Origin: Moniliella sp. 'wahieum'
Lineage: Eukaryota
NCBI GenBank assembly: GCA_003971905.1
Contig: RSEE01000010.1
Coordinates: 248,001-312,000, forward strand
Length of the DNA stretch: 64,000 nt
Direction: 5' to 3'
The notes below the pieces were generated by a model, which was not told where the DNA came from, searched no databases, and saw only the letters and a list, made by a program, of their open reading frames with translations. The translations under genes and the position numbers were made by a program. Below are positions 379-62,336 of this stretch, piece after piece. How positions within the stretch are numbered: the stretch's first letter is position 1; every line of letters starts with the position of its first letter.

Positions 379-1545
379 GGTGCGATTCATTGGCAATGGC
401 CTGTGACATGTGACATGTGACACATGACATGTGATCGTGCCGTGGGTCGTCTTGCCCGTGTTACCAAGGCCCCCTAGCTCAATGCATGCATCTCTCAATT
501 GTCCTTTGTTGCTCAACTCACCCCCTGGACGGGAACGTCATCTTCGACGTTTAAATAGGCCATAGGGCAACCCTTGCTGGTTGAGCGGGCCCACTGGCCA
601 GTCAAAACTCACTCAGAACACAGAACTTCAGGGGCCGCGGCTTGCGCTTTAAGCTTAACCGGTAACCGGTAACCATTGACCAGCTTGACCGGCCGTTGAA
701 ATACATGTAGGGCCTATACGCTTAGGACGGGAACGCCTCGCCCTTAAACTCTTAAATTGCTTGCACTTCCCCTCTGCACGGAACGGAACGCATGAACGTC
801 CTGAACGCACGGCACGAGCGCCGCCGATGGTGTGTGCTTCCATGCGGATATCAGGGTTGATCATTGATCAGGAGTTGGGTTGTTACATGTTACAAGCTGA
901 GACCCGAGGCTCGGGCCCGAAGACACGAGTTGTTTCGATGAGCCCTCTCCGCAACCGCTTGCGTGTAATGTGTAACGTGTACGGGACACAAAACGTATCT
1001 CAGATCTCAAGTCTACAGCGGGCGATGCTCGATGCAGTCTTTGGCAAATCAAAACGTATCCTGGCAGTGGCACGACGAGAGGGAAGATCGGTGATCCGTG
1101 ATCCGTGATCCGTGATCAATGATCAGTGATCGATAATGAGATCCTGCTTAGGCAGAGAGGAGGGCAACGACAAAAAGACAGAGACAACAAGAGCACAAAG
1201 CCACCACACAGCACACACCACACAGCAAGGGATGGTCTGCCAACGACCGAGGGCAGGGTGCGCCACGACTGGTAAGAGGTTGGAACGTGTCAGGGCGAGG
1301 GCGAGCGATAAGGAAGACAGAGCAGGTATCAGATCGCAGATCGCAGGGGGCACACAGGACCGGCACTTCTGGCACGACGACGCACGACGCACGACGCACG
1401 ACGCGGACGCGGGACGAGGCAAGGTACGCAAGGTACCGAGACCAAGCAAGATAACTGGTACCTGGTGCCCGGTACCTGGTAACTGGTAAGGTAAGGCGCA
1501 AGGCGGGATGGCAGGGCAAGACGCAAGACGCACGCAGCCAATCGA

Positions 1546-9825: not shown

Positions 9826-12800
9826 TCACCTCTTTTTGCCAATTTCGGCCCACAAGAGTGCTAGTGACTTCATCGGGCCAGTCCTCTCCTGTCGAAGGGA
9901 CCTGGAGCGTTGACCGACCGAAGACCCCCCCCTCCCCCTTCCCTCCCGTATACGCGCCAATTAACCCACACACATAGCAATGCCTTTGCTAAATCTGCCA
10001 TAGTAGGACTGTGCTGGCAATTATACAGTCGATGTTTATATCGCGTATTAGACCGTCGCGGGTGCATGCCAGATGAGACCTGTGCTGAATGGCGACCTGC
10101 TTGCGACATGGAGAGGTGTATAAATATAACCCCCAATCCTGATCCCCCCCCCCCCCCCGCGTTTCCATTGCTGGAATAATGGCACCATATCCCTCGTCCT
10201 CAGCAAACACAGTCAAGCATCTGTGGGGAGTGCAGTCCAACGCCAATAAGTACACCAGTTCAAGATGTCCAATAAGTAAGGAGAACCCCACCAAACTATA
10301 TTTTCCTGCCACCAATATCCCCAACCTGAAGCTTATTGGGGCTATTATGTACTCCTCGCGCTGGTGAGCCTCAGCACGCCGCACACGCCTCTGCAAAATC
10401 ACGGTTTGGACGATCTATATTTCTGTTGTGCTGTCAGCGTCATCACGCATGCCGCTGATCGATCTGATCCCACACACGCCTCGCGCCTCGCCCTGTTCTA
10501 CCCGACTCTCCCCTATGTTCTGCCCCCCAACGGGCTCCTCTCTTGGAATAGACTCATCGTCTTCTCTCTCTCTCCTCTCTCTCTCCTTCTCTCTTTCACA
10601 CAAGTGTGCTCTTATTCTTTCTCTCCGAGCAGCTCTTTTCAGAGCTTCGCATACGCCCCAGGCAGCAGAAACAGAAAATAGAGAGAAGAGGCCAGGGGAA
10701 AACCCAGACATGAGAAGGAATCTCGGTCGTGTCGGAAAAGGAGATGGGAATGCGAGGTTGAAGCTTAAGCTTGAGCTTAAGCGTGAGCTTGAGGTTGAGC
10801 TTGAGCTTGAAAAAGTAACGCCAATTTTACTCGCCCCTGCCATGCATGGGACATGTACACAAACACACTGTCTCGGGGCTCTGCCAGCTGGGATGCATGG
10901 GAGGTGGCATGTGCGTGACACGCACGCTCTGAGACACGAGATTCGGAGGGAGCCTGCGCTGTGCAGCCGGGGGCAGCCTGTCGGGCGTGCCGCGTGGTGC
11001 AGGGAGCCCCTGGGCCGGTGGACTGCACCAGACTGACCGGTGACCACGTACTCAGTCTGAACCCTACCCCGCTGCAGAGCGCTGGCGCCGGCGGAACATC
11101 TGCGTCCGACAAGGCGTGCATAGCCTGTGCTGTGCAACGCAGCTTCAACATTGCAAGTCACGTCACGCGTCACATGTCACAGCCTGGCGGCGACGGCAAG
11201 CGTGTACACTTAAAGTGCACCCTACCCGATGCATGACTCCATCCTGAGGCCTGACACTGCGTACTACTCAGTGAGTTACTCATGCCACATGCCACTTGTC
11301 TCACCTGCCACATCCCATCCAGTACTCAGTACTCAGTAGCTGTTGTCGTACGTATGTATTTCTGTCGTATCAATATCATCAATCATCTGCGGGGAGCGGT
11401 GCGAAAGGTTGGTTTTGTTGTTGCGTTGACTCACCTCCTTGTTCTCAGCACTGCCTCGACCTCCAACAGCCTGCAAGGGTGGTAATTGGGAAAGTCGGCC
11501 GGGCCAGCAAGGGGCCAGACAGACACGAAGAACAGCAATGCTTATATTGACCCCAAATCATTCTGGGAAGGATTTTCCATTCTTTGTGTAATGGGAAAGA
11601 GAAGGAGAGGGAAAGGTCCACACTTGTTTTCTTGTCATGCTTTTTTATTCTGTCCAGTTGATACAGTTGCTACATGCCGAGACTGTACATATGATGTGGG
11701 CATGGACAGCAGAGGGTGTTACAAATTGTAGGAGAATCGATTTCACAGGCATCATTAATTGATGATCTGAATGATAGTTCCGTTCCCCCCCTCAAAACGT
11801 GTTCGGTCCCGCAGGCCTTCAACAAGCTTCAAGTTTCGCAGGCCTTGCGGGTTGAGATCAACGCTGAGATCTGAGAAGCCCCACTAGAGCCTCTGAAGAT
11901 ACGCACAGCAGATGGGGCACTGGTTGAACCCATGACAAATGTAGATCGCTATCCTGCTATAGCGCCCGCCATCATCATAACTTTCCAGAGGGTCATCATG
12001 CATCACACAAGTGGAGCTACTAACATTTGAGAAGCTAAATGCAGCTGTGACATGTGACAACAAGCAGCTGGGGTTGTAACAGATTTAACGGTGCCCGAAG
12101 AGAAGAGGTTGCTGTGTTGTTGACGCGCAGAGATCGAGCATTTGGCGGGGCTATTCTTATTAGAGTGAGGCCTGAGGGCTCCCTTGACATTCGTGAGCGC
12201 TCAGGCTGACCGGCTCAGCAGCTCAGCCTACTTGTATCTCGTGTAACATGCAAACGGCAATTATGCACGATGCATTTTGGGGCATTGGGCTTGTTGTTGC
12301 CGGTGGCGCAGAGGGACTGACAGGGACTGGCGGGAAGCAGAAGACAAACATGCATCCGTGAGGCACCTGTCAAAAAAGTGGTCTGGGGCAAATTGCATGG
12401 CAGCGGTGTTTCCTGCACAGCCCGGGCAGGGCCTGGCAGGGCCCAGGCTGGCTCAGGCGCTAAGGCGCTCAGGGTGAACCGTGAGCGTGATGCATGATGC
12501 ATGATGGCCACACCTGGCAGCTAGTAAACAAGATTGGTCGTACGCCGTACCGGTGACGCGCGACGCGTGACAGGTAACAAAACAGGGTGATAACTGCATG
12601 TTGTCTGAGACTAAGACCCAAGGCCAAAGATCTAAGAAAAGGCATGTCACGGGTCAGTCACCGATCGCACTGACCGAACGAGAAAGGCACAATTTGCAGT
12701 AAGAGTGCCCCTGTGCCCCAGCCTGAGGTCAGACGGGCAAACGTGGCGCCAAACACCCAGGAACACGCAGCAATAGCTGAGTTGCTGCTATTCTGATTCC

Positions 12801-15384: not shown

Positions 15385-15447
15385 GCCAAGAGCCAAGAGC
15401 CAAGAGCCAAGAGCCAAGAGCCAAGAGCCAAGACCCAAGACCCAAGT
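15385..15447. repeat. (GCCAAGA)7 heptamer tandem repeat plus 2 variant units
   Basis: Directly visible; the same unit recurs x4 at 19143-19170. Confidence 0.95.
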
Positions 15448-15461
15448 ACCAGAGGAAGGCA

Positions 15462-17678
15462 TCAACGCAGCGACGGGGCACCATCCAGATGAGTGTTGAC
15501 ATGGACAGTGGGCGAGACTAGCGCGGGGGACTTAGGTCGGCGCACGGCAACGGCACGGGGGATACGAATGGGTTGGGCAGAGACAGGCACAGCGGACGGG
15601 ATCAGTGTGGCTGGTGATTTGGCGCTTGAGGCGGGGACCGTCGTGCCCGTCGTGCCCGTGACCATGGCCGTTGCTGTGGAGACGGAGCGAGCGGAGGGAC
15701 GTATCGGTTGCTCTCCCCCCTTGGGCTGGTGCGGTGGGACGGCAGGACCGGGCAGCGGACGTGTTCGAGCTGAGCGAGCGCGAGCCAGGGACGAGGGGAC
15801 CAAAGGGTTCTCCTTCTTTGTCCTGGGAAGGAGTAGGGGAAGGGGAAGGGGAAGGGAAGAGGAAAAGGGGAAGGAGATCGGGATCGGCGCGCCTGTCCGC
15901 GGGAGGAGGAAGGGCGGGAGGGAAGAAGAGGAGCGGGCGCGGGCTCGGGTCCGGGCCGCGGCCGGGGCCGGGGTGGGGGTGAGATTGCCCAGTCCCAGTC
16001 CTAGATGCAGAGAGAAGAACGAGGAGCGTCGGCTCGGGGATCGGGAGATACTGTGTGGTTCGAATTCGGCGCCTTCGAGTACCAAAGGTCGTGGGTCAGT
16101 CGAGGTGGGCGAGGAAAGGACGAGCGAAGGTGGTGTGGGGCGGTGTTGGCGCGACCCAATTGGCCTAGGTTGCGCTGTAGGTTGGTCCTGTTCCTCTGTG
16201 CGTTTCCCCGATGGCAGGGCGGCATTTTGCGCTTGTACTTGTGCCTGTGCTTCTGAGGTGGCAAGCGCACTCTCGGGAGGCCAGTTGGCCAAGGCAGCTC
16301 GAAGAACTTCGACCGAGTGGTACTTGCGCAAGTGGGGGGGTAGGAGACAGGAACTGTTGCGCAAGGCAACCGCCTCTTGTGGGCTCAACACGGGTCCGGC
16401 AGCAGGGGAGGAGAGGAGAGCATGGATGCGCGTTTGGTCCCCAGCTGACCCGGCAGAGGAAGGCGCAGGCAAAGGCGTCCCTCGGGCCAGGGGGATATTA
16501 TTTGTCCTCCTCGCACTGGTAGATGGAGCAGGGGGTATAACACTGGATGCGTCACTCAGTACTTCCATCGCAGACTCGTCGCCCATTCCCAGGAAATCAG
16601 GGGTGCCATCCTGGTCATCATGCAGGACCACGCTTGCGCGCCACAGATTGTTTTTGCTTCCGCGGCGCAGGGGACGGAGCCGAGACAAATCAGAGGGCGT
16701 CATCTGTCCAGGCAGGACAGGGGCGGAGACTCGGTAATCGTTTGCACAGGGGCGCGAGGACGGATCGTACGATGCAGGTCGGGGCTTTGCGACTAATAGG
16801 GTGACGCAGGCGAGGCTGACTGCCCGGAGCTTGAGGGGGAAGAGGGGGCGACCTCCGTGAGCTCCCATCAGATGGAGCAGGGGAAGGGGGACTGGCTTGA
16901 CCAGCCCCATCGCTGGGACACCAAATGTCTTCCTCATGCAGCGACCGGCGCTTGCGTGCGCTCTCCACAATGTTCTGGGATCCAAGCTGATCACTTGAGG
17001 ACGGTGCGCGAAATGGAGAGAACCCTTGGTCAGGGATTTGCGGTCGCCGGGCGTGGCGACCGGATGCTGCTAGATCCTTGTCCTGGGTCCAAGCTAGCAC
17101 GGCAGCCGCACTCAACGGTCTTGACGGTTGTGAGGTGCCCCCCTGCAACACACGAGGGCGTAGCCGAGGCGTGTTGAGTGGCGCCGCGGAAGGGGGATCG
17201 GGTTTGCGCCACCACCACTCGGATATGCGGCGGCCTAGTCCGGGCCGATTGTCGTCAATCACACCAAGGGCAGGACGAGAAAGAGGAGCGGCAAGGGGAG
17301 GTTGTGGATTGGGAGGAACAATTGATGGCGTATGAGACGATGTATGAGAGGCATCCGTGCCGGGCTTGGGCTTGGGCGTGGCTTGAGTAGGTTCGCCATT
17401 CTCGTTTTGGTTTTGGGTTTCGTTCTGGTCCACGTTTTCTTCGTGGTCCTCATTTTGGGAGGCGGCGCTAGCAAGGCCGGGGCGAAGGGAAGCGGCGGTG
17501 GGGGTGACGATGCGAGTTTCCTTGTACCCTGCTTGGGCAAGCAGGTCCTGGAGGGAATCAAAGGCGTCTTCGGTTGGTGGGAGGGGCGAGGGGCGGCGCG
17601 GCGGCGGAGGTCGAGGGGTGGGACGGGGGAGGAGATGGCGGGGGGCGAGGGCTTGGACATGGACATGGACATGGGCAT
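15462..17678 (-). CDS. Hypothetical Pro/Ser/Arg-rich, probably disordered protein (frameshifted)
   Basis: Long overlapping ORFs 16690-17850 and 15462-16994 contain an ordered-looking motif DAFDSLQDLLAQAGYKETRIVTP. Start is uncertain and no domain was recognised. Confidence 0.55.
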
Positions 17679-19499
17679 GAGGATGCGGATGCGGATGGGA
17701 ATGGGGAGGGGGAGGGGGAGGGGTATGGTGCAGAACGGGGCAACACCGTGTGCGGTGGTGCAGGCCCGGCGTTGGCCAGGGGGCGGGCGGAGGGCAGGCA
17801 GTGGAAGCGGGCGGTGGTGGCAGGGAGAACAGAAGCCAACAAAACAACACAACACAATTGGGTGATGGGTGAGCTGGTGAAAGGAGGTGGTGCGCGGGTG
17901 CGAGATGAAGATTTCAGTGGTGAGTGCTGGGTGGGTGAGCTAGTCAGCTGAGCGCGGCAAATGGCGTACCGCAGATTAGTCACTGGTCAAAGTCAACGCA
18001 GCGCTGTGCGCGCTCAGGCCCAGCATTCAACTGAATGTTCAAGTTACGTTCAACATAGACATTGCATTGCACCCGTCGCTGCAACGCACCACCGCATCCA
18101 CAACTCACACGCGTTCTGATCCATATTCAATGCCCCGTTCCTCTCGCCTCGCGCAGCTCCCCCGGTTCCTGCTGGATTCTACGCCGACCGAAACCGATCA
18201 GCACCACGACCGGTATGCCCGCGTCCCACGCGTGCCTACAAGCTTGGCTGGCCGCCTCGCTCTCACTTCTCACATCTCACATCTCACATCTCACTAGTCA
18301 CTGTCTCCCCGCAGCAACCTTGCTATTATCCTGGCAAGGGGAGTACTCAGACTGAGTCCTCACTGAGTGCTTACTAGGATTGGGGCCCACCCGCCCTCTG
18401 TCCACCACCACCTGCCTCCCCTGGTCCGCCCGACGCCCCAGGTTGCCAGAGCAACGGGCAACAGACAGAGACGACACGATAACCACATTCCGCCCACTTC
18501 CTACCCAGGTGCAGTTGCGCTGATTAATGATCGATGATCGATGGATCCCATTTCTCATTTCAGTTAGTTGTTCGATCAATATCAATCTTCAGATCTCAGA
18601 TTACATAACCGGTTACCGCTCACTTGCTTGTGTGGCGTGCATGGCGCATGATGCATGATGCATGATCGGTGGGAACCTCCCTGGTGGTTGGTACATGGGT
18701 ACGTGGCAGCCTGTAATGTATAGGTTTTGAGATCTCTTAGATCTTAGGTCTTATAGATCTCACATCTTACCGGCGGTACATCATACTTGTGGAAACCACC
18801 TTAGCAAGGGGACGAGACAAAGTGGCTCAGTGGCCAGGCCAAGGGGCTAGGGACTGGGGACGTAGAAGGGAGACCAGAGCGCCAGGCGGGGCATCGCGAC
18901 CCGCTCTCTACGACCACAGGCCACAAGCCACAGGCCACAGGCCACAGGCCACATGGCATAAGGCAGAGGGCATGGGCGTGGGCAAGTCTGTATCGAGCAC
19001 GTTGAGCGCGGTGCAGCCTGCGGGTTCTCCAAACCGTCATCATTACGCGTCGACCATGCATGCACGCGAGACGTGGCTGGGAGAAGGAGGGCCGGGCTAC
19101 GAAGGTCCTAAAGCCAAGGTCCTAACGCCAAAAGGGCTACGGGCCAAGAGCCAAGAGCCAAGAGCCAAGAGCAAAGGGCTACGGGCCAAGGAACAGGGTA
19201 CAAGACCCGACGCACCCGAGGGGCTTGGACCGCAGGGGAGCAAGCGAAACTGACACGATACAGCGAGGTGGGAGATAGACCTAGTAGGAAGGAATGGAAC
19301 CAAGTTCATTGCGCGCTGTTCAAGCTCAATAAGCTCAATAAGCTCAAAAGCTCAAGCACAATGCAGATTGCAGAACAACGGCTAGTAAGTACTACGGATG
19401 CAGCGGGACCTTCCATCTAACGGTGACAGGGGCGAGGGCGACGGGCTCGCGGGGGGAAAAGAGGGCATACAGAGAGAGAGGGGGTAAGCAAGTCATGGG

Positions 19500-21578
19500 T
19501 CATGGTACTGCGCCGTCCTCTTGCCAGGCCATTTCGAGCAGTTGGGCTTCAAGGTCCGGCGGGTGCGGGGGGAGAGAGCAAGCTGCCCCTGCTGCCCCCG
19601 TAGGGTGGGGGGGGAAGGGAGCAGGTGACCTGCTCATTGGTGCAGGGGAGGCAGTAACGTACGCCGTTGGGTCCAGGAGGACCGGGGTAGCGGCTGACGG
19701 TGCCAGTACCGGTCGGGGAGCACAAGTTACCGGCAAGCCAGCTGTGTCCGTGTGCTCCATCGGTAACGTATATTGGGCTTTAGCTTCCTTTCTCTTGGTT
19801 CTCCATCGTGCATGGCGTACATAGCGCACCGAGTGAACCAGCACCAGGGAGCGTAACGCCGATGAGACCAGGATGGCCATCCAGAGGGGAGGAATGACGC
19901 GGTGGCGCACGTTGAGTGCGCATTGGGCCGAGGCATAATCCAAATTGGACAATTCAGATAGTAAGCCCAAAGCGGCTGAGGAAGTGGACGAGGACGAAGA
20001 CGAGGTAGGGGAAAGTGGTAAGTTGGCCATGCTCATGCCCACTGGTAAGGGGGAGGCCGGTACCGAGACATCCCGGCTCGTGCGTTTCTCCGCGCCAAGG
20101 GGGGGCGAACCCGAGGGCGAAAAGAGGTAGCAGACATAGAGTTGCATAGCGGGGTGGTAAAGCGATACGACGAGGATGATGGCGTCGACGAGAACAATGG
20201 CAAAGTCTGCGCCCTGCTGGACCACATAGACCAAAAATAATCGCCATTCGTCCATCATCACGCCCATCAAGCCTGCCACCGCACAAGCGAGACCAGTGAG
20301 GGCATAGATGCGCAACAGGTCCGGGTACAGAGTCGAAGTATCCTTGCGCACACCTGCAGTTTCCTCCTCCGCCTCGGACCAGGGGAACGATCCGGCAGAA
20401 AAGGGTACTTCATCTTGCATCGCAGCGGGAACGCTTTGCCACTGATCGGGAGAAAAAGGTTCCGAGGGCGCGAGGTTAGCCACACCCACACCAGGGGTAC
20501 CGCTCCTGCCCGTTTGCGCGTTGGAACCGGCAGCTGCGGAAGAGCGCCAAGACCAAAGTTTTTCCAAGGACCAAACGCCTGTCGAGGACGAGGAGGGAGG
20601 GGCAACGGTGGAAAGGGGGGCAAACGAGGGGCTACCCCGCGAGGGGGTGGCAGCAGAGGGCGGGAGAACGCCGTTCAGCGTAGCCGAAGCCGAAGGAAAG
20701 GGGGGTTGAGGTCCTGTGGGTACCCAAACGGGATCCCGTGACATAAAGGGAGTTTGTTGCCGCGGTGCATGACCACGAGCCGCAAGGACAGGCAGGGCAG
20801 CAGCGCGAATATCCAGTTTCCACGCTTGGGCAAACCGGTACAGGGCCCAATTCCACGCCAGCGAGGCCAGGCAGATGGTCACTACAATCCAATGGCGTTG
20901 GAGACGGGACCAAGGGGTGTGGGTGCGCCCGATCCGTTTGAGAGAAGACCTACGGGACCGATGTCGGCGCGGGTGGCCACGAGTGGCCAAAGTCGTGTCG
21001 CCTGAGCTTCTGGGCAGGGGGGGGGGTGGAACGTGGTATCAAGGCGGAGGCAAGCGAGACGGAACGCTGAGGAGTGCGCCGATCAGGAACGGTGTGAAGG
21101 CGATGATGGGAGCGCTTGGACGAATGCGCACGGGGACGGCTGTGGGCACGGGAGGCGGGGCGTGAACGGTGCTGAGAGCCAGGAGGGGCGGAGAAGAGTC
21201 GGCCAAGGCAAAATCGTCTTCGGATGCACGGCGCGCGACGGGGTACACCAGGCGGGTGGAACGACGGGGAGGAAAGCGATGGGCACTGGTTGTGCTGGTG
21301 CCGCAGGGGCGGGAGGCAGGATCAGGCTCGGCCGTGTCCAAGGCGCCGTGGGGGCGGGATGTTGAGAGGGACAACATGCGCTGGCGCTGCTCAGGGTCAA
21401 CCAATGCGCCCGACCAGTCAAGAGAGACAGCGCGACGGGAGGCTGCCATGGAAGCGGACGTAGATGGCGGGGGAAGCGCAGACGACTCGGCCGGCAGCAG
21501 TGTGTGCGGGACCAGGCGTGGGGCGAGAGAGGGGCCTTGTCCGGGCGGGACGGCGGCGGGGCTGGGATGGATGGACAT
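19500..21578 (-). CDS. Hypothetical multi-pass membrane protein
   Basis: 496-aa ORF 19500-20990 with about four hydrophobic segments (WIVVTICLASLAWNWAL; IYALTGLACAVAGLMGV; FAIVLVDAIILVVSLY; LWMAILVSSALRSLVLV), plus an upstream low-complexity ORF probably joined by a frameshift. Confidence 0.6.
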
Positions 21579-24500
21579 GCTCGGAGAAGCGTGAGGGCAG
21601 CTCACACCCGCCCATACACAGCCGCTGGCCCTGGATGGCGCTGTGGGGGAGGGGAGGGGAGGGGAGGTGGTGGTGGTGGTGGAGACGGCTTGGCAGGTGG
21701 AGGGGCAGGCAGGCACACACGCTCCTCTGCGGCTGGGTGTGTGGTTGCTTTCCCGATCGAGCTAGGCGTGTAGGCGCACCGGTTGATTCCGGTGTGGGCG
21801 GCTTGGGGTTGGGTTTCAGGGCGGGCAGGGTGGGCGCTGGACAGGGCAGTGCGGCCCAGGAAGGGACGACTGGGAGTGTACTCAGCACTCATTCATGCTC
21901 AGCGTACTCAGCGCAGCTGCAACTAGAGACGCTCGACTCAGCACAGATTAGGCGCTGGGTCCCGCGTGCGGCTACGGTTACGCGTTACGCGTTCCGGCAC
22001 TCAAGTACTGAACACCGACTGAACGTTGAACGTTGAACGGACTCACCGACGGGTGATGCGGGACAGCACTCAAACGGGTGTGCCCAGGCCCAGCATCATC
22101 CATCAGCTCGCTGTGCTCATGCGCTCATGATGGAACAGGCAGCTGGCAAGTGTGAGCCACTCGGTCGCAGCACAGAGCCACCGCCCACCAGCGCCCAACA
22201 CCACACCCCTGCCGCTTGCATCTGTCCCGTCTGCTCGCACTCGACATGAATATGAAGATTCCCCTGCCCCTCCGCCCTCCGCTGCCTTCCTCGGCGGGCT
22301 GGGCAAGGGCATGCGCATGAGGCCAGAGGGCAGACGCTGCGGTCACATGCCATGTCACCCACACGCCCAAGACGAGCGCTGAGCGTGCTGACGCATGTCA
22401 TCATTCTCATCATGATATGCGCACCGCGGCCAACGTGGCGGCGGCGTGGGAGAGGCGGATGTAATGATGTTTACGTCCGTGTTGCTAGCTCCGCCATCGA
22501 TCATCGATCATCGATCTGATCTCCCATCCATGCCGCGTGTCACCTGTCACATGCATCACAGGGCACGCGTCACGCGTCACGCGCCACGGGTCACATGCAC
22601 ACGAGCCCGCACAGCCTCGCGCAGCGCGAGTTACAGCCTGGCACATGTTACAGCGACCAAGCCGCTTTGTACGCCTCAGGCCCCTCAGGGCCTGAGGCTC
22701 AGGGCCTGAGGGTATGACCGACTGACCCAGCTTCACTAATGAGGAAAGCTTCAAGCTAGTCATACTGACCAACTGGCCGCGCCAGCACCGGCCCACACTA
22801 CACGTACTACCTTCAGGAAATTAAACCCCTCACTAACACTAGTCCCTCCAGCTTCAGCCACTAGTCACTAGCTACTAAAAGTCACTGCTTCGCTACATGT
22901 ACTCCACCTCGGTTGCGTCGTTCGTCCGGCGCGGCACGTGGACGAGCGTGGGGTGGGGTGGGCCGGAGATCGCTTCTTAGATCTTACGTGTTACAGCAGC
23001 CCCCTTCCCCACAGCCCTGTTGAGGCTCACTGTGAGCGCGTGAGCCCTTTTGCGGCGCGTTTTCATTCGCCCACTGTTCCTGCTCCCAGCTCCACGCCGA
23101 GCCCGTCCAACCCATACTGCCACCCACCTCAATTAAAAGTTCTTTGGAGTCTTCCTCTTTGGCCTTATAGCCGCAGACCGTCATCCGACGTCGGAAGAGA
23201 AGGCTGCTACCCCCCTTTGGCTGGCACATCCCTCTACCCATCACCCTGCCATGCGTTGTGCCATGCTTTCCCCCGCAATTGAAAGGACTGCACACATGAC
23301 GGGTACCGCGCGGTTACGGGTATTCTCCCCAACTTGCCATCCCCAGGCCTCCCGACAACGGCCTCGCATGTCTCGATGTCATGGCTGCACGGCCGATGGA
23401 GCGCTGGGATGCCTGGACCATGCCCGCCCGTGCCAACGTGTGCGATAGGAACTGTATGCGATCGGACTGCCTGGGGCCACGGAGAAGGGGGAAAAGTCGA
23501 ACCCCCCAGACTGAGCCAGAGTCTCTTTCGCTTTGATTCTCGCTATTGCCTGGTCCGGTTCCGTCCGGATGCGTCCGATTCCGTCGGCCGAGCTATGCCG
23601 TACAGTGACGATTGCGTTTGACGGATGGATAGCCTTGCGAGCGCCACTCAATCTGAGTACTACTCATGCACTCATGCCCAAGCGGCAGCTCTAAGACGTA
23701 CCGTCTGCCCCAGGCTGATGAGAGGTATGGAAGGCATGGATAGGCCGCGCATGCTCGGACTTACCAAACCGGTGGACATCCCCTCGTCATGCTCACCAGC
23801 GCAACGACCCGTGGGATCAAATGCAAACAAAGGTGTGGATCCACCAGTCGCGGCTTCATTTCCTTTAGCGCCCATCTCTCCCCGCCATAGTACTTGACAC
23901 TACGCTACTAGGGAGGCAAGGAACTTCGGGGCCGCTGGGAGTGAATTGGCCGAACCCCATGGTGGTAAAATGCTAGGGAGACACGGAGGTGATGGGTTCT
24001 TACTCCGCATATCAGGCACACTGACTGAGGCCAAAACATTTGTAGTTCCGTCATATCAACGTAGGGGGTGATAGCCTTCCCTAGCCCCTTTCTGTTACCC
24101 CTTTTCCTCGACAGTGGTGCCCAGCTTCCTCACCACCTCAGGGCTGTTCCGTGTCCTTTCCTTCTGACCTCCTTACTCATCTCGACCACTGCGACCGACC
24201 CGCAGCCACCGCTTCTGCAGACTACTTGTCAAAGAGTGTCCTTCACCAGCTGGGGAGGAGAGACACAACCGCAGGCACCGCAGCATTGTGGGCCTATCGC
24301 CTCTCTGGCTGTCTCTGCCAATGTATCCAACGCTGCACCAAAGACGGTCTATCCTTGCCACCCATCGAATGCTACGTGGCGCGTGGGCCCTCTTATCTTG
24401 ACGCAGCACTGGTGCCGTTCTCTGGCACCAAGCAAGGAGTTCTACGTCGTGGTATCATGTACCAACCATGCACAGGAATTTGAATGAATTATGTCGCCGC

Positions 24501-24650
24501 TCCTGGAGCTGCGGGATGGAGAGGAGGAAGCATCATAGGTTCAAAGCGTCCTCCAGTCCATCTTCAGCTCCAATGAGAGGGAGGAATGGGGTGCATGAGA
24601 ATAACGCACATGAATCCCAATCCCAATCCTAACACAACACCGACACTGTC

Positions 24651-25946
<1,296 letters not shown>

Positions 25947-27492
25947 GGTGGCAGCGGACTGGAGGTTGGTTGGGGGAGTTGGGACGGGGAGGAGGGGGTG
26001 GTGGTGGGATCAACGTTGAACGTTGAACGTCAAGCAATTATCGGTACCCCAGCAAAGCGGGAGCAGGCGCTATCGAGGCCGCGTTGCGATGTAGATGCGC
26101 ACACTAGGCGCTGTCCCATCGCCTGCCATCGCGCACGGCCCAGTTGGATGATCGATGATCTCGATGATCGACGATCGCCGCCGCCCAACACTAGGCCACT
26201 GTAGAAGAGGGCGGAATGCAAGAGTTCACTTCCGCCGCTCGCATTCCGCCCCTGTCAAATGGCGATTGCGGATGGGGGGCTGAGCAGCGGCCGCATACCT
26301 GCTAGTAGCGACTGCGAAATAAGATCTAAGACCCTGACGCGTGATGCGGCGCCATCGACCATCGGCCATCGGCTCTGCGGCCAGGCGATGATCGATGGCG
26401 ATCTAATCGGTTGCTGATCTCAACAACTTACTTGGACGGCCCATTCTGGCGACGTAATGCAGCTGGGGGCACTCGGCGATCCTACGGATCAGCTGCAAGG
26501 CAGCCTTCAGGCCAGGAGTAGTGAAGCTTGAAGGCAAGGGGCGAGCCACAAGTCTTCAAGCAACGTCGGAAGGAGACAGGAGAGAGAAGAGGAAGATGGA
26601 GTGAGCAGGGGGTGCACAGCCGACGGCCCGAAGGGCCATGCAGGGGAACCCTAGCACTACCCTCCAGCACATCATCCAATGGTCACCGGTCACGGTCACC
26701 CTCTCAGCTGCGATGGGCGCATGTCCAATGAACGACATCGATTGATCGATGGTGGTACAACGAAACAAGACAACGTTTTGAAGCGTGGAGCTGGAATATT
26801 GTTGAGGTATGCTGGCGAGCCAGACCAGGTCAAGCTTCAAGCTTCAAGCTTCAAGCTCAAGGCCGAGTGAGTGGCAAGCCAAAGTGCCAAGCAGCAAGAG
26901 GGTTCTAAGTGGAAGCTGGCGGTGCACGCAGCGTGGACAGAATCCATTTAGGTTGTGAACCTACGGCCGTCCTCGGAACTTGGTGGTGGGCGAGGGCAGA
27001 GTGTGTGGAGGCGGCGTGGGCGTGTGGCAGGCTGTGGCGGTGGCTCGGCTGCTGGACCTGCGGTGCCTGCTGCCCCACCTGGCGTGCGCTAGTGACCAGC
27101 GTGAGCGGTGTGCTTGCGAAGCTAGTGACTAGTGACTCGTGACTGGACGAGTGACAGTGGCTACTAGGTACGAGGAGGAGATGGTGGGGGCACTGTGCTA
27201 CGTGCATCCTAGGAGGGAAGCGATGAATCAGGGGTGACGGTGACCAGTGACTCCACCAGCGACCGGTGACATCACATGACCCGCCATGCCCGGCCGCAAG
27301 CCTCGGGCCTGAGCCTGAGTTACTGCGTTACTCAGTACTCGTGTACTCACTCGGATGATTGGAAGCTCTGAGCGGCTGAGCGCTTGAGCGCAGGTGGACC
27401 ACAGACCCTTCCACACCAGTCTCCGTGCAAGCTGGCTGTGGCTCCTTTGGCTCACACTTGGCCAGCACACGTTCCCTTCCACTCCTTCCGCT

Positions 27493-27580
27493 TCACTTCC
27501 ACTTCCACTTCCACTTCCACTTCCACTTCACGTCCACTTCCACTTCCACTTCCACTCCCACTTCCACTTCCACTTCCACT
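27493..27580. repeat. (TTCCAC)n hexamer microsatellite
   Basis: Directly visible imperfect run upstream of the methyltransferase-like gene. Confidence 0.9.
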
Positions 27581-28550
27581 CCCATCTCACCCCGTCTCCC
27601 TCTCCCACCCCCACCCCCACCCCCACTCCGGACGATGGGACGGTGGTGAGCATGAGCGGCCAGCGCGTCTCCCCCCCGTCGAGCCGCCCCGCGGCCCTCC
27701 GCACCCGCGCCCACACCAGATCCAGCTGCCCCCTCCGCCCCCCTCGCCTTGGCTGTATCTGCGCCCCGCCTCCGCGGGCCAGCCACTGCCCCCATCCTCT
27801 CCCACCCGCTCCTGCCGCCTTCCACCTCCGGCTCCCCCGCTGTCTCCCGCACCCCATACCCCACCCGCAGCGTTCCCCCTCCTACACACGCATCAGTACT
27901 TCCGCCGCCGCCCAGCGCCGCTCCTACCCCAATCGTCCCCATGAGTCCGAGGTAGACTACTTTTCGCTTCCACAGTTGAGTCCTACCGTCTCCACTGGGC
28001 TGCAGCTCGGGCTCGGCCGCCCCATTCGACGCAGGCCCAAGCGGACTTGCGCTTTGTCCGGCCCTTCACCCTCAATTCCAACCAGCTCGGCCAATTGACC
28101 CAACGAGCGGCCTCGCGCAACCTCAGTCTCTCCACTTCGCTCTTCTCCCCTTCCCATCTCCCTGCTTCCCCCACATCACTCTGGCCCACCCCGGGCCGGA
28201 CAGCCACGCACCTGGTCTCAGTCCCTGTCGCCAGAAATGGACCGCTCGCGGCCTTCGTCCGCTCGCTCCTTGACCGCAAGGACCCCTAGTCGGAGTGCCC
28301 TCTCGTCCACGTCGGTCCCAGGACCATCCACAACCGGCGGGCCCCGGGGGACATCTTCTTCAGTTAATATTCCTCCTTCTTTCCCCCCTGCCGATACGGC
28401 ATCCCAGTCGTCCAAGCCACCACATAGCCCCTCCGATCCACGAGACCCCAATTACATCTCGGTCTCTTCCCCCCGCCCCTCGCTCGGATCCAGAGTTCGT
28501 CTCGGCGAGTAACCGAGGTTGGCACCAACCTTTCCACCTCTCCCGCTGGG

Positions 28551-29969
28551 GTGGTGCGAGATGGAGCTCTGACTTCTGCTGGAGAAGCGGCGGATACCCT
28601 CGGTGCCCCGCCCGCGTTCTTTCAAGATGCGCCAGGTCTGCATGGGCTCGGCGGCGGGACCCAATTTGGTGCAGCTGTACGCAAAAAAGTGGCTGACACA
28701 CTCGATTTGTTGATCCAAGGAGGTGCCCTGCCACCACGGGATCCAAGGCAGATCGTACAGGTGGCTGAGTATGGTGCGGTCAATGGAAGAGGCTATCCTT
28801 TGATTCAAGCCATCATCACCCGCCTGGCGGAAGCGATGGCAGAGCGCACACGCACTTCTTCCTCGTCCCCTGGTCGCCCACACGTTCCTGATGGTGATGG
28901 TGCCACTGAGTTTTGGGTGATGCACTGCGATGCTCCCGGAACCGACTTCCGCGGACTGATGGCCGCGCTGGAAACCGATCCCGACTCTTATTTAGCCCCT
29001 GGGTGGGCTGCGCGAACTCGTGGAGTCTCTTCTGATGGCGTTTACCACTCCTTTACCGACCGACCATTTGGAGCATGTGTAGCTCCCAGGTCAAGTATCG
29101 ACTTTGGTGTCTCCATCATGGACCTCCATTGGGGGCACAACCTCCATGGTCCACCCTCCGCCTCGGACCGAGCCAACACTGTCATTGCTGATACAGAGCT
29201 CACCCAGTTCCTTCGGGCCCGGGCGACCGAGTTGAGGCCTGGGGCTCATTTGGTGGTCGCCTACATTGCCCGGGGCGAAACTCCTTCGCGTCCAACGTCC
29301 GTCTCCAGGCGGCGGCATACCGACACCCCAGGTCCAGACCACCTTGATCGCTCAGGATCAACGTCGGATGTATGGGCCGTGCTGGGCGAACTGCTGGGCC
29401 CGAGCATTCAGCGGCTCGTGTCGTGCGGTATGCTCCAAGCTGATGTGGCACGCTATATGCTCACCCTTCCGCTGTATCCCCGTACCACAGCTCAGTCGGT
29501 TGCCACGCTGCGGGCTCAGAAGGACTTGTGGAAGGTTGATTGGGCTTGTGGGTTGGGCGACTACCCCAATGAGTCGGTCCCCTGCTCCAACTCCATCGAT
29601 ACCCCTGCCCCAGAGTCCTCTGTACCCACGTGTGATCCCTCGGCATGCGACTCGGCCCCGTTCGTCCAACCGCCTCGCCCCGTAAGCGATCCAGAACCGT
29701 TGCGCCTGCCCCACCCAGCGTGGGTCTCCTATAACGCGGGTGCACTATCGCGGGTGGCGTATTCGGAGCATGTCATTGCCCTGATCAAAAACCTTTACGA
29801 GGCGCATTGGCGCAAACTGCTCTCGTCGCGTGGACGCCTGAGCAAGGGCGCAGTGGCCTTCACCCTCGATTCGATTTATGATGTTCTGCAAACCCGCCTC
29901 GACTCGCCCGATGTACCGCTGCACCGAATCGAGTTTGAGATCTGCATCTACCTCCTCCGACGCAGGTGA
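28551..29969 (+). CDS. SAM-dependent carboxyl methyltransferase (SABATH/Methyltransf_7)-like protein; a low-complexity N-terminal extension probably starts near 27652
   Basis: 472-aa ORF with QVAEYGA.NG (degenerate IADxGxxxG), MHCDAPGTDF (like DLPxNDF), SIDFGVS.MDLHW (like SxxxLHW) and FLRARATELRPGAHLV (like FLxxRaxELxpGG). Confidence 0.65.
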   Translation: MVRDGALTSAGEAADTLGAPPAFFQDAPGLHGLGGGTQFGAAVRKKVADTLDLLIQGGALPPRDPRQIVQVAEYGAVNGRGYPLIQAIITRLAEAMAERTRTSSSSPGRPHVPDGDGATEFWVMHCDAPGTDFRGLMAALETDPDSYLAPGWAARTRGVSSDGVYHSFTDRPFGACVAPRSSIDFGVSIMDLHWGHNLHGPPSASDRANTVIADTELTQFLRARATELRPGAHLVVAYIARGETPSRPTSVSRRRHTDTPGPDHLDRSGSTSDVWAVLGELLGPSIQRLVSCGMLQADVARYMLTLPLYPRTTAQSVATLRAQKDLWKVDWACGLGDYPNESVPCSNSIDTPAPESSVPTCDPSACDSAPFVQPPRPVSDPEPLRLPHPAWVSYNAGALSRVAYSEHVIALIKNLYEAHWRKLLSSRGRLSKGAVAFTLDSIYDVLQTRLDSPDVPLHRIEFEICIYLLRRR

Positions 29970-31176
29970 GGGCGGCGCCGATCTAGCATCCCTGCGCTGA
30001 TCTACCTTTCTTTTCGGCTGGTGCTGGCCGCTCGCCTCTGCCTGCGTACACTTGACCCTTCACGCCTCCATTCCTTTTTTTACTACGACTCTGCCTCCTT
30101 TGTGGGCTTGGCCTCGCCGTTGTCTCTTACTGGGGAGACTGCACTTTGTCACCGATCCTTCCGGTTTTGATTTCCCCTTGTCATGACTTTTCGCAGCGCA
30201 TCTGTGTTTCCTTGCGCCCAATCACTTTCCGCTCACTTGCCCGTCTCTTTTTGTCCTGCTTCCCCCTCTCTCCTCTCTGGTCTTACTAGGTTACTCCCCA
30301 CCCTTTTTCTCCTCCCTTCCATCGCCACCCAGCGCGACGCTGTCCTCTTGTCCTCTTTTTGGCTCTCTTGTTCTTGGTCACACTCTCTTGCCGATATGGG
30401 CCTCTCACTTCGACTTCTTCTCAGCTTGCTGTCTCTGGTACCTGTTGGTCATTGTTATGGATGTCTTGCTACTGCCAGCAGGGATCGATTGGCACAGCAC
30501 ATAATGCACCGGCGACGGCGAAGCGCAACTGATATGCGGCTGTAGGAGTTTCGCCCTGACACGCCTCCCCCTCCACCTTCTGGGGCTGGCCGTCAATGGC
30601 ATGATGGCGGGGGGTCTCGCGCGGGTCAAGGATGCAGATGGGAAAGGTGACGAGATATTCCTGCATTGAGAAGTGATGGGTTTGGCATCGCCTTTCCGGG
30701 CGAGTGCAAGCCGTAGGAGCAGCCTCAAGAAATGGCAACACGCCGGCGGTGGTACTGAGTATTAGATGGATGCGATGGGGGATGGTCCGAGCGTCAAGCA
30801 GATTTGGGGCAAAAGCAATAAGGTAGTGTCGAATTGGGAAAACCAGCATTTTCACAATTGCACGCATCCAATTTGATCGATTCGAAGCAAGGGATAATAT
30901 GGTCTACTTGGCTGCTCCTGCTGTTCCCTCGGCCACCTGACCGGCCGAGTTGTTGACACCATCAACGAACCATCAGACCAAGCTAGCCCCGGTGCGGCTG
31001 CATCGCTTTTGCCATGCCGCTCCTCCCCGCCTCTTCGTTTGCCGCGCCCCCCTTCTCCTTCTCTCCCGCCCCCGCCGCCACATCTCACCCGCCTCCTGCG
31101 ATCTTCCCGACGCCTAAGCTGCCACTGGCAACGTCAACTTCTCCCACCCTTGCCCAAGAGCAAGCATGTTTAGGTC

Positions 31177-41737: not shown

Positions 41738-42794
41738 CAGGATGTCGGGTGGCAGGAGGAGGGCGTTGAACAGAGGAGGGTGGTAATCTGTGGTAGCGAA
41801 GAAGTGGAATGAGAATGAGAAGTCAACGTCAACACTCACTAGTCAACGTTCAACTTGACTGCTGAAGTTCAGCTTCAACGTTCAACTTCAACATTGAGAC
41901 GTTGAACAGTCACTAATCAACGTCACACGTCGCGCGTCACACGTCAGTGCTCACAACACGTTAAGAGTCGCCCAGTCAATGCGCTGAACGCAGTCCACAG
42001 CAGTCCACCTCAGGCTGAGGCCCTCAGGCCTCAGGCCCTCAAACTGAGACTGCGCTGAGGGCGCCAATCAACGTGCTGGCCAATCATTAATCACTGTATA
42101 TTTGTTGGTCTACCTGGACCGAGGACCGCTGATTGAGGCCGCTAGGGTTGCTGCTTTTCTGTTCTGCTTTCGATTGCAACGGAATGAGCATTTGGCCAAG
42201 GGGTTGTTACGCGTTACGCGCCCCCATCTTTTTTTCCACAGCTCGACTTACGATCTGGCACCCGACGTGACCATGATACACGTTTTCTGTCCGCCCCCCG
42301 ATAGAGGCAAGAAATTGGCTAAGAGTAGAGTTGAGAAGTGCCACGTCCGCCCAAATAAATCGATCTCCATCAATGAGATATTTTCGGCGGCAGCTTTTAG
42401 CCTGTATGAATCAGACTTCGAGAGGCCCAAACCATCTGATACAGCCTCTCTGTACGGCAAGTGTGGCTCCCTGGTTGGACCACATGCTGCTAGCACGTAA
42501 ACCTGGCCCTTTCTGGTCCCCCGGCCACAGGGCATCGATGCTTTTCTGTGCCCCAATCCATTCCACCACAGCACTTTCTTGTGGTCATGTGAGCCTATCG
42601 ACGCGCTGGGGAGGAGTAAAGCTAGTAACTAGAAACTGACCCGTGAACATTTCAATAAACAAGTGTTGGCTTTCCAAGTATCGGGTGATCACCGATTATG
42701 CAGTTGGGGATAAGCGCGAAGCGTAAGCGACGCGACTGCACTTGTGTCGTACTTGAACCGCACGTTCAATGCACCTTTCCCTCACCCCACCACC

Positions 42795-48047: not shown

Positions 48048-50737
48048 GCTGAAATCGAGTGCAGAAGAAGAGGCGCGGTTCCCAGAGGAGGAGAAATCGC
48101 AGGCGATGGACCGGTCGGCACCGGGGGAGGCCAGTCGGAGGACATGGCTCCTCAAGGGACGGAGACCGGACGAGAGGAAAGACGGCGAACGGGAAAGGGC
48201 GAAAGGCGAGAGATGTAGCGTGCCGGCACACAAAGGGCGCAGAGGTGGCGCAAACGAGCCAGGAAGTGTGGTCTGAAGGGAATACTCACAGGGCTCGGGC
48301 TGAGCCCTGAGGATCAGGTGGAAGGAGGACGGTGGCGATGGCCCCGAGCAAGGAGGCAGAACAGCCGTGCCGGGCAGGCGAGAGAGGACGCAAGTCGGAA
48401 ACAGAACGCGAGTTCTGCAACCTGCAACTCACTGACACTCAGATTCAGAGGCCTCCCTGAGGCCTGAGGCCCTGAGGACGGTAGCCCCAAATGACCCTCG
48501 GCCTCAGGCCGTCAGGCGCCGATATTCAGCAACCATCGGCATCACGCACCCATCATCCATCCCCAATTCGAGCCACTAGCTGCTGCCTGCCAAACGCCCA
48601 GGCATGGCGCTACTGGCAGGGTGACCGGTGACCGGTGATGCATGGCGGTTAGAATGGCCCTTGGGGCGTTTAAGCTTTAGGCGGTAGGTCTAGGCCTTAG
48701 CTTTGGGCCTGCGGCTACGCACTATGGGCCATAGCGTGACTGGCGACCGGTGATCGATGATCCTTCGGGGGCGGGCGGCTGGGCGAACCCGAGGGCCTGG
48801 ACCCTGGTCCGTCGCGCTATAGGCGCAGCCCTCCTCGGGCAAGATCCCCATGGTCATCGGGAGACACTTTGGGCCCGCACTGCTCCAGTGTCAGGCTTCC
48901 TGCGATGGTCAGCTAAGACACACAAAGACATCGTTTAAGACGTTTAAGTGCAGCTCTGGCTATAATGACCGTCATGACCGGTGACCACCTCGTGGCCGTC
49001 ATCTGGCGATCGATGATCAGTACTCAGTAGCTGGCTAGTAACTAGGTAACTATAGTAACTCACTACTAGCTGATCAAGCTGCGACGCGGATGCTTCACAC
49101 CGCCGGTGAGCTAGTCAGTACAGTCAGTGGCTATTATGTACTGAGTGTGTCACGCACCTCATATTAAGTAACCGGTAACTGGTAACCCCGTCGGTACGCG
49201 CCGCTAACGTGGCAATCCTTCCACCAGCCCCATGCCTATACTAGCCCCCACTTCCTTCTACGTTCAACCGTTCGTGCCATTTACATGTTACAGGGCTTCA
49301 AGCTGGGGCAAAAAGTGCTGCTGCGTGTTCGTGTCAAACCAAGTAGGAAACTGTGGCAGTAAAGTCGCCGGCTGGTAATATAGTCCTCTGAGATCTGACT
49401 CCCGCCATTCGCTCTCTCAGATCTCAAATCGGATGTAGCGCGCGTGGAAATGAGCATGGCAGAGACACGTGCAAGAGGTGCGTTTATTGATCCGCATCTC
49501 TCCACTCCGCAGCCCGATCTCTTCATCGTTTACTAGTACCTCTCGGTCGGTGACGTGGGCCTTCTCTCTCACACAAGGTCCTCATGAATCCCTGATTCAT
49601 TTAACCCTTCTATTGGTTCTATTGCTGAGTGAGTAGTCGGTATATACTACAGACCTGTCGTGTGTCGACTATTACTTTTCCCCACACTGTAACCCTCTCC
49701 TCTATTTTGCTGGTTCGTTGAAAACAAACGCGTCAATACAAATTGAGAGTATCCGCCTAAGGATGATGAGCGATCAGTCTGCCTAAAGTGGAGAGTACAC
49801 ACTCATTAAATTGGACGGTGGTGAAAACCTACTCAATATAGTTCAACAGCGACATTTGTCCACCACACCCTACTGTTTTGTGCACTTACACCTAACGAGA
49901 CAAACGGTACCGAATGTATGATGAGTTGGAGGCTAATTTGAATTGGCTACTAGTAGTTGCCAGCGAGCTCGAGGCACTTTGCACTTACCCTTGGTACTCA
50001 GGGGAAGCCTTAGGTGATAGGCATGCCGAGTTGAAAGCACTTATGGGCTCTACCAAATTGCGTTCGTCGCGCCCATATATTGAGTCTCAGTTAGTATGAT
50101 ATGCTCCATGCCAACATCTTTGCCACGATTCCTAACGAGTTGCGCCACTTCTTGAATTCCCTCCATACGCGAAAAGTGTGTGTGTGCTTGGCACCTAAGA
50201 GAATTGTGTCATGTCCGTCAGTACAAATGTAATGCGCCACGGCCTCACAGACGAAAATACACCACGATAGACGTGCCCGAACATATGTCTCGTATGCCCT
50301 CATCATCATATTGTATGTAGATATTTTCTCCTCACCAAAGAGAGGCATTCTTAACATCCTTTTCGATCCATTGTTAGGTTCTTCCCAGAAGTCATCATAT
50401 CAATCCGGTTCCACTCGTTGAGTGCTGAACCGCTGGACAGTTCTCCAGCCTGTTTTGTGGGCGTCACCTTACCAGTACGCCATGTACATTCGCACTTTAC
50501 CCTGTTCACTTTATGCAAGTATCTTCGAGAGAAGTTTAGTTTTCTCTGGACACTGCTACGACTAATAAACGGTTCTCGGCCTGAGAACTTTTGCGGCCTT
50601 TGGCATGCACGTCCCATATCCCACAGGACTTTGAAGCAGCAAGCTTCCTTGCGCACAATTAAAGGAGTTTCTGGACCCATATACACGATGCGTGAGAGAG
50701 GATGGTAGATCAATGTGAGCCGTGAAAATAAGATGCG

Positions 50738-61008: not shown

Positions 61009-61994
61009 GCTGGACGGAAGGCGGTGGAGCAGAAGACTGGGCTGGGAAAGAGTTGAACCATTCACAGCGCCTGGCCTCAGATCATCGATCATGCCTTCGT
61101 CCCCACCGCGGGTGTGCCACGCCTTGCCACGAAGCCAGGGGGCTGAAGTGATTTGAACGTTTGCATTTTGCGCGCCGTCATCCGCTCCCGCCACGCGATT
61201 GTGTGGCAAGGTTGGGTTTTCATGTCACAGTGACATGTCTGCCAGCTATGCAGTCTGCAGGATGGGCGAAGGGCGAAGCGTGTCCGCAGTCCTGCGGTCC
61301 CAGGCTGTCCCCTGTCCGGGCCGGGCAAGCTTTGCGCATCCCCACCCGCCCCGACTGCGAATCCACCGCACGGCACAGCGCCCAGGTATGCGGCAAACGC
61401 GTGGCCCGCCATGCTCGCTCGCCTGAGCTCAGCTCAGGCGCTCATCCGCCGTTTGCCAGCAGCGTCACGGCACTCTTAGGTAATCCCACACCGAGTCGGG
61501 CCAAGACGAGTAGATCCAAGTGGGCCAGGGGCCAAACCACCCGCACGTGATTCACAGACTGCCATTCTCGCTTGGGGCTCAGGCGATAAGCTCCTTCAAG
61601 CTTCAAGCTTCACCACCTGCTCTTCTTTTTGGCCTTAAAACTAGTTCAAACCAGACAAGACCACCTGCCGCCCCGTTTTGGCGCGAATGGAAAGGGAATA
61701 GTCCTTGCTAAACGCTCGCCGGCGTTAAACGTTAACCGGTAACCGGTAACCCCCTCCCTTCCTCCCTGTGCATGAGACCCATGATGCATGACGGCGCCAG
61801 TGCCCACCTCGCCTTCCCAGCGCCAAGTATAGGGCGAGCCCCACTGAGCGTATCCAAAAGATGGCGAGACACACTCATACCGACGGCACATTGAACCCTG
61901 CGTCGAGCATCCACCGTGCAGATAGATGGGGATGGAAGCCTTCCCTCTCAAAGCCTGACCCGTGTCCACTCTTTTGAGCCATCACCGGGTGGCT

Positions 61995-62336
61995 CGTGCT
62001 TTGGCCAACGTCCCTTCAGTTCCTCCTCAGGCCTAGGAGCTCCGTTGTCTTCTCTCTCCTGTTTTTCCTTGTCCCGTAGCTTAGCCTCTGGTGGCGACTC
62101 GCTGTTTGATGTTCCTCTGTAGCCAGGTGTTGCTCGTTGGCTTAGTCCCCCCCCACCACCAGTGCAATTGCATCACCCTCGAGGACCATCCGGACTGCCA
62201 GGTCTCATCACACTCGCCACGTGCCAAGGACGACACGGAGTTGGTTTATAACATTTCGGGGATGCTTATACCGGCCACATGTACAACTTCCCAGTAGGGT
62301 TACTACCGCAGCACCAGTAACAGTGGCGCTGTGACA
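61995..62336 (+). repeat. Dispersed repeat copy A, LTR-like end (..CTGTGACA)
   Basis: 61995 to about 62220 aligns by eye with the reverse complement of about 63780-64000. Confidence 0.8.

Follow-up and report, generated by a model that had tools for sequence, protein, structure and literature searches.

Chimeric arrays of palindromic hexamers in Moniliella sp. 'wahieum' as stacks of a stereotyped 7-bp fold-back unit at TNA sites

The DNA analyzed here, in the following called the window, comprises 64,000 nucleotides (C10:248001-312000) of a 69.5-Mb assembly of 223 contigs. A class II aldolase gene begins just upstream of it, and a kinase gene within it has its best named matches in basidiomycetes and other fungi, at about 50% identity. 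Two haplotypes are present in the assembly: C56 corresponds to the first half of the window, and C45 is paired in the same way with C3 and C17 with C62. In the haplotype alignments (231,733 aligned columns) 3.2% of the positions are mismatched. Among the indels between the haplotypes those of 1 bp prevail, with 1,296 clean cases in all alignments, which suggests long-read errors in the assembly. As compared to C56, positions 19897-32373 of the window lie in the orientation opposite to that of the preceding DNA, either as an inversion or as an assembly flip at the contig end, and 16457-19897 has no match in the examined part of C56. For the genes at 28546-29969, 35610-36709 and 38422-39708, C45 and C3 carry another pair of homologues with 74-85% DNA identity, the first two being neighbors there as well; this is an old duplication.

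The original prediction for this window had been that different palindromic hexamers are joined there in one 7-bp register, and the six strings cited as examples are all found where it had placed them. Exact runs of period 7 occur 63 times in the window, compared to 4.4 in order-3 Markov simulations (a 14-fold excess). A palindromic hexamer is contained in 28/63 of these runs and in 9/89 of the simulated ones, and 27 of the 28, counted by eye, have the form A....T. Non-identical A....T palindromes at a distance of 7 exceed chance, with 7 pairs in the window against 1.2 expected (p 2.5e-4); in 302 kb there are 25 against 9.2 (p 1.2e-5). Spacings 6 and 8-13 are without excess (3-8 pairs, 4-8 expected), and spacing 14 yields 22 pairs with 6 expected. 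The claim holds for the A....T form only: over all palindromes the excess in the window is not significant (20 vs 13.8, p 0.07), and in the 302 kb, where 104 such pairs compare with 77 expected, it is confined to A....T. The arrays are thus real and beyond chance.

The repeat A-core-T-N can be read equally well as a TNA triplet followed by a 4-base palindromic core. Arrays then take the frame xy-TNA-core-TNA-uv, where the core is a mirror of two host bases, either y'x'xy (left-type) or uvv'u' (right-type). We are confident that a single stereotyped mutation underlies them, in which a site xy-TNA-uv gains seven bases and becomes xy TNA y'x'xy TNA uv or xy TNA uvv'u' TNA uv. The corresponding pattern of five direct, two mirror and five direct bases was counted 847 times in 422 kb of single-haplotype DNA, 524 times with a TNA triplet, as compared to 53 times in simulations; a mirror length of 2 with a direct repeat length of 5 is the dominant combination. 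This 16-fold excess by itself requires a process that creates the unit. Among the 349 TNA pairs 7 apart whose flanks can be distinguished, 73 enclose a right core and 61 a left core (p 0.34 for the difference); a plain duplication is found in 24 more and a hybrid in 6, and the remaining 185 belong to no such class. Over all TNA pairs 7 apart the fold-back cores number 259 and 266, and with permuted flanks 31 and 36. Pairs of ANT, GNC or CNG give 0-6 such cores. TNG/CNA pairs give 36 and 23, so these triplets are weak or decayed targets. Beyond the TNA itself the target preference is slight, with weak biases beside the triplet and none for N (164 isolated events), and all 16 possible cores were found. 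The cores are even-centred (y'x'|xy) and no base is lost. Each unit displays a 5-base target duplication directly; a duplication of 7 bases is what the mirror symmetry and the rare +8 and +9 forms, which keep u or uv (10/150 and 6/201), point to. An early idea had the cores as the terminal bases of elements from several transposon families, set within a TNA duplication of 3 bp; it was dropped, since the core tracks the host flank.

Units occur at a density of about 1 per kb (1.1-1.2 per kb in three long stretches of this genome). Of the 75 in the window none falls within the 9,120 bp of identified coding DNA, where 10.7 would be expected; they are absent from genes because a gain of 7 bases shifts the reading frame. 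The arrays and units considered individually are the following (window positions, forward strand).

647..674: CT TTA AGCT TAA CCGG TAA CCGG TAA CC, chimera of one left-type core (flank CT) and two right-type cores (flank CC); first triplet TTA instead of TAA (complementary middle base); other haplotype shorter by one right-type unit.
11034..11045: TGACC GG TGACC, single right-type unit; TGACC once in the other haplotype.
11161..11181: CG TCA CGCG TCA CATG TCA CA, perfect chimera, one left and one right event at the site CG-TCA-CA; right-type unit alone in the other haplotype.
11243..11254: CCTGA GG CCTGA, single left-type unit; CCTGA once in the other haplotype.
12545..12579: cited example but no true chimera; decayed (TGA CGCG)2 array with a chance or mutated neighbor on each side.
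18519..18546: GC TGA TTAA TGA TCGA TGA TCGA TGG, two core types; no left flank match; last triplet TGG; no allele aligned.
26505..26509: CTTCA, unhit site; left-type unit in the other haplotype.
41834..41854: AC TCA CTAG TCA ACGT TCA AC, additional chimera, absent from the original prediction; right flank matches, left flank with one mismatch.
48620..48647: GG TGA CCGG TGA CCGG TGA TGCA TGG, two left-type cores followed by a second core type; ends at the variant triplet TGG; right flank without match.
48742..48762: GG CGA CCGG TGA TCGA TGA TC, additional chimera, likewise absent from the original prediction; first triplet is the variant CGA; both flanks match.
61724..61751: GT TAA ACGT TAA CCGG TAA CCGG TAA CC, perfect chimera of one left and two right units.

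Five of the six cited chimeras therefore stand, those at 11161 and 61724 in perfect form and those at 647, 18519 and 48620 in imperfect form. The string at 12549 had to be given up as a palindrome chimera: only two of the four hexamers in it are palindromes, in the other haplotype the first hexamer is non-palindromic and the (TGA CGCG)2 array is intact, and what remains is a decayed single-core array. The window also contains long non-palindromic heptamer arrays without TNA (GCCAAGA, ACGACGC; 15385-15446, 19143-19176 and 1377-1404), which are outside the model of left and right events, except as decayed or slippage-grown arrays.

The birth of units can be followed between the haplotypes. At 11034, 11161, 11243 and 26505 a 5-base word holding the TNA occurs once in one haplotype and twice, with two mirror bases in between, in the other. 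When a fixed rule is applied to the 77 clean 7-bp haplotype indels, 19 of them add a fold-back unit where the other allele has none; by a looser rule, 37 of the same 77 lie in or at fold-back units, 10 are plain tandem copies and 30 are other changes. The two new bases are present in neither neighbor and were therefore not supplied by slippage. Since the units added in these 19 indels are absent from the short allele, the original prediction was right that slippage alone is unable to build the arrays. The added bases vary with the host flank and are therefore not the ends of an element either. Loss of a unit by slippage would yield identical pairs of alleles, and a third copy is therefore required to tell the direction of change. 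One site of a 240-bp LTR-like family is readable in 36 of 46 distinct copies, 35 of them short and one with the unit; in a 245-bp family, readable at 17 of 30 loci, 16 are short and one is long, with one mismatch in the first triplet. These two multicopy repeats show the long form as the likely derived state, two cases being few. An 868-bp LTR family (no scars in 29 copies, 24,977 bases) and recent tandem duplicates were uninformative on direction.

Chimeric arrays are the expected outcome of one left and one right event, that is, of separate insertions at one TNA site. After a left event two TNA triplets with four sides would be present, three of which would regenerate the same core, and only the outer right side would give a new one. 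An array should therefore begin with m left cores and continue with n right cores, about one quarter of the two-core arrays should be mixed, and the middle base N would be copied along as the array grows. In the 422 kb we counted 77 multi-core chains, of which 22 are mixed, compared to 0-1 in three simulations. All 22 consist of exactly two cores in two runs, never of three cores or an alternation. The first core is the one predicted by the outer left flank in 14/22 and the last core the one predicted by the outer right flank in 17/22, each with a chance level of about 1/12; both hold in 12/22, and N is constant along the array in 17/22. The mixed share for two, three and four cores is 14/61, 8/15 and 0/1; the values expected from simulations in which arrays grow by repeated random events are 23%, 33% and 41%. 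A growth model with half slippage predicts 11% mixed two-core arrays and is rejected (p 0.007). A slippage microsatellite was also discarded as an explanation, because the added unit copies no adjacent unit in 19/77 indels and the chimeric share fits repeated events.

The original prediction had further stated that neighboring units differ by paired, symmetry-preserving substitutions. Instead, the cores have separate origins, each being copied from its own outer flank. Neighboring cores differ at both base pairs in 10/22 chimeras and at one pair only in 12/22; both-pair differences are compatible with independent draws (60%, p 0.2), and stepwise compensation should mostly give one-pair differences. 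Several of the mixed arrays, including that at 11161, face a single-core allele in the other haplotype. Sites are also used repeatedly: 61 of 306 arrays have at least two cores, as compared to 0.068 cores per TNA within 150 bases, so that re-hitting is about three times above the local density.

The check that had been proposed for compensatory changes, strain polymorphism, was carried out on the haplotypes and turned out against such changes. In gap-free alignment 160 palindromic cores could be compared: 139 are the same in both haplotypes, 19 are broken (18 by one change, 1 by two non-compensating changes) and 2 are replaced by another palindrome. In one of the two swapped cores a left-type allele faces a right-type one; the second is a genuine paired change for which the flanks give no explanation, and this lone case is weak evidence, with about 0.1 such cases estimated by chance. 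Symmetry had been thought to be maintained or generated: it is generated, the core mirroring the host flank, and it is not kept up after formation.

The agent behind this mutation is, in our judgement, probably the excision of a transposon that leaves its flanks as hairpins, with a 7-bp NN-TNA-NN target and the hairpins opened 2 nt from the tip. A cut-and-paste element would insert, duplicating the 7-bp target xyTNAuv, and would later be excised. Both flanks would be sealed as hairpins without loss of bases, in a RAG/Transib-like manner, and a host nuclease would open each hairpin 2 nt from its tip, so that uvv'u' and y'x'xy would protrude as palindromic 3' overhangs of 4 nt. In end joining, either of the two would then be taken into a single 4-base slot, one strand winning as a whole. 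Two overhangs competing for a single slot would explain why the gain is always 7, why left equals right and why hybrids are rare (6). A left or a right scar alone needs just a 5-base duplication; the 7-bp target may be deduced, and the rare +8 and +9 forms are as such a duplication predicts. We infer the hairpin mechanism from the resemblance of the direct duplication and the exact 2-base mirror copy to target duplication and P nucleotides, respectively. When examined as a footprint, the unit repeats the terminal flank bases exactly and in inverted form, and the target is duplicated on both sides of the junction. The unit works like a hairpin excision footprint; membership in any named transposon family would go beyond the evidence. 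The footprint spectrum here is much narrower than the known ones, which speaks against such a transposon, as do the use of sites beyond what local density explains and the absence of scars from the 29 copies of the 868-bp LTR. Hairpins on the flanking DNA are formed by hAT, Transib, MULE and RAG, whose breaks are mended by the host with footprints as the result (PMC5499845); +2 is the main position at which Artemis opens hairpins (PMC2175297), and 7-bp duplications are known in fungal transposons, namely hAT7 (PMC12730594).

An element with an NN-TNA-NN duplication was searched for in about 1 Mb (both haplotypes and overlaps, less than 2% of the assembly), and none was found there. A strict scan for terminal inverted repeats (TIRs) with duplications gave three 7-bp matches, two of them one locus in both haplotypes and none with TNA, and none of the large haplotype indels read by eye is flanked by an NN-TNA-NN duplication. 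A profile search for the hAT dimerisation domain (PF05699) was without a match, the control search being equally silent. PF02992 was found at two loci, one with an allele in the other haplotype, and PF13963 in one weak match. Relaxed end searches at both PF02992 loci detected no convincing TIR or duplication, and the EnSpm-like remnants on C17/C62 and C34 were accordingly rejected as the agent; a homologue search with the C17 protein returned nothing at E 1e-10. A single-copy EnSpm-like (PF02992) transposase stretch without recognisable ends lies at L110:4930-5982, with its allele in L287; it is common to both haplotypes and therefore possibly old or domesticated.

The 868-bp, 240-bp and 245-bp repeats were set aside as well, their TG...CA ends and mostly 5-bp duplications making them LTR-like. 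The aldolase locus (C10 246977-250550; L028:8970-10000 to window position 2557) is bounded in both haplotypes by an inverted repeat of 14 bp, which is imperfect, and by a direct repeat of 7 bp; as an element it was judged to be chance, because it encloses the class II aldolase gene, its duplication is without TNA and its end word has two other, unpaired matches. The 868-bp repeat is present in the window as a solo LTR-like copy (52414-53281, TG...CA, TTGGA on both sides), with at least 40 matches in the assembly. Two copies of the 240-bp repeat, for which a first look gave 597 candidates, lie in opposite orientation at about 61973-62210 and from 63788 to beyond 64000, with 5-bp duplications. 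Position 30760 is an empty site at which the other haplotype carries the 245-bp repeat (L010:954-1200), copies of which elsewhere form direct pairs about 6.1 kb apart.

The same grammar could also have been written by a host enzyme without mobile DNA, either a domesticated transposase or nuclease or a TNA-specific lesion repair, by which the TNA would be cut with a stagger and the ends filled, hairpinned, opened and rejoined. We regard this as unlikely, and no more highly do we rate its stronger form, a standing mutator with a TNA-specific cut-duplicate-hairpin activity that produces about one 7-bp unit per 200 substitutions in non-coding DNA and re-hits old sites. The very narrow product spectrum and the re-use of sites speak for such an enzyme, as does the fact that units stand at about 1 per kb and account for 37/77 clean 7-bp indels, yet no element was found in the DNA examined. 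However, duplication and hairpinned ends are both required, and insertion followed by excision would give both in one package; it was roughly estimated that this many scars could stem from some tens of elements per genome, which could escape detection in the DNA examined. A replication template switch, in which the nascent strand leaves after the TNA, copies two bases of the opposite strand and restarts five bases back, appears improbable to us. As outlined for the four-point model, such switching can formally write the product, short switches occur in eukaryotes, and short inverted repeats can arise in one step and mimic compensatory change (PMC5453318). In the data presented there it has no fixed target or size, and the order of switch points needed here, with the return point before the leaving point, belongs to a class unseen in the human-chimp set, for which fragments of at least 14 bp were kept (PMC5453318). 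The switch also offers no reason for TNA: ANT, GNC and CNG are equally self-complementary yet show 0-6 fold-back cores against about 260 for TNA, and a mirror length of 2 with a repeat length of 5 dominates.

The view from which this analysis started, slippage copies that acquire paired substitutions and whose symmetry is kept by repair or selection, has very little probability left and is largely refuted. The one aligned core whose paired change exceeds what its flanks explain and the 12/22 chimeras that differ at one pair only would fit it; against it stand 19 broken cores versus 2 swaps in 160, the outer flanks that dictate the cores, the 22 chimeras without third core or alternation, and entire chimeric units that are present or absent between haplotypes. 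Just as remote is the view that the arrays are ordinary microsatellites under selection as binding sites, products of chance juxtaposition or an artefact of assembly. In its favor are the avoidance of the 9,120 bp of coding DNA by all 75 window units (10.7 expected) and an assembly rich in 1-bp indels. Against it, all 16 possible cores are present, units arise within neutral LTR-like copies, 139/160 cores are common to independently assembled haplotype contigs, and 0-1 simulated chimeras compare with 22 observed; chance is refuted.

The footprint of hAT elements (Ac/Ds, Hermes) is an odd-centred palindrome from which the terminal flank base is lost; the cores described here are even-centred and without base loss, and a hAT footprint proper was rejected. 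Tc1/mariner-type footprints consist of bases left over from the element ends, constant per family, and were rejected since the core matches the host flank site by site. V(D)J P nucleotides, made by RAG hairpins and Artemis, share with the units, as far as the cited account goes, the even-centred 2-base mirror of an end, as from opening at +2 with a 4-nt palindromic 3' overhang (PMC2175297); unlike them, the units here come with a direct duplication, at TNA sites in non-coding DNA, and with almost no trimming or added bases. The excision footprints of hAT, Transib and MULE elements are likewise described as a duplicated target with an inverted flank copy (PMC5499845), in contrast to which there is here one fixed +7 outcome in two mirror forms, at about 1 per kb and in stacked arrays. 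Among rust fungi, the hAT7 group provides 7-bp duplications in basidiomycete elements and EnSpm is grouped with Transib; the EnSpm families have 3-bp duplications, and the main text does not use the words TNA or footprint (PMC12730594). The nearest published report, by its description only, is that of 10-bp repeats in Ustilago maydis, which are numerous and scattered in a transposon-poor basidiomycete genome and were suggested to be transposon footprints (PMC4081816). Their period is 10, as compared to the 7-bp units here, and that description gives no internal grammar (PMC4081816). A literature search among open-licence papers retrieved no description of 7-bp TNA fold-back arrays.

Metagenome loci containing one array word were also inspected: in 80 with flanks, among at least 121 listed, units with a different core number 23 over 381,912 bases, as compared to the 1.1-1.2 per kb of this genome. 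Two core types occur in 3/80 of these loci among the matches listed, compared to 3-7 types in nine 8-kb pieces of this genome, and among these matches 0/80 has a core diversity like that of this genome.

The arrays offer, in countable form, tandem repeats that are born and grow by repeated break and repair and not by slippage. Extrapolated from about 1 unit per kb, a haploid genome would contain tens of thousands of scars, which may serve as a natural read-out of how fungal cells open and join hairpin ends, the outcome being much more uniform than in the footprints known so far. With each event a 6-base palindrome is made in intergenic DNA, a possible source of new binding sites. The arrays are also a warning that apparent compensatory changes may be two unrelated insertions. 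If the host-enzyme mutator were true, tandem repeats and palindromic regulatory words would have a new origin, directed by an enzyme.

Three further observations concern C45 and C3. A 5.15-kb segment is present in at least three tandem copies on C45 (about 134140-159590) and in a single copy in C3, and a 2-kb tandem repeat at about 847160-852790 of C3 is absent from C45. At about 131545-132016 of C45 (L114) lies an old 472-bp copy of a dispersed repeat with six fold-back units, three of whose sites differ from the C3 allele; this copy is a local hot spot.
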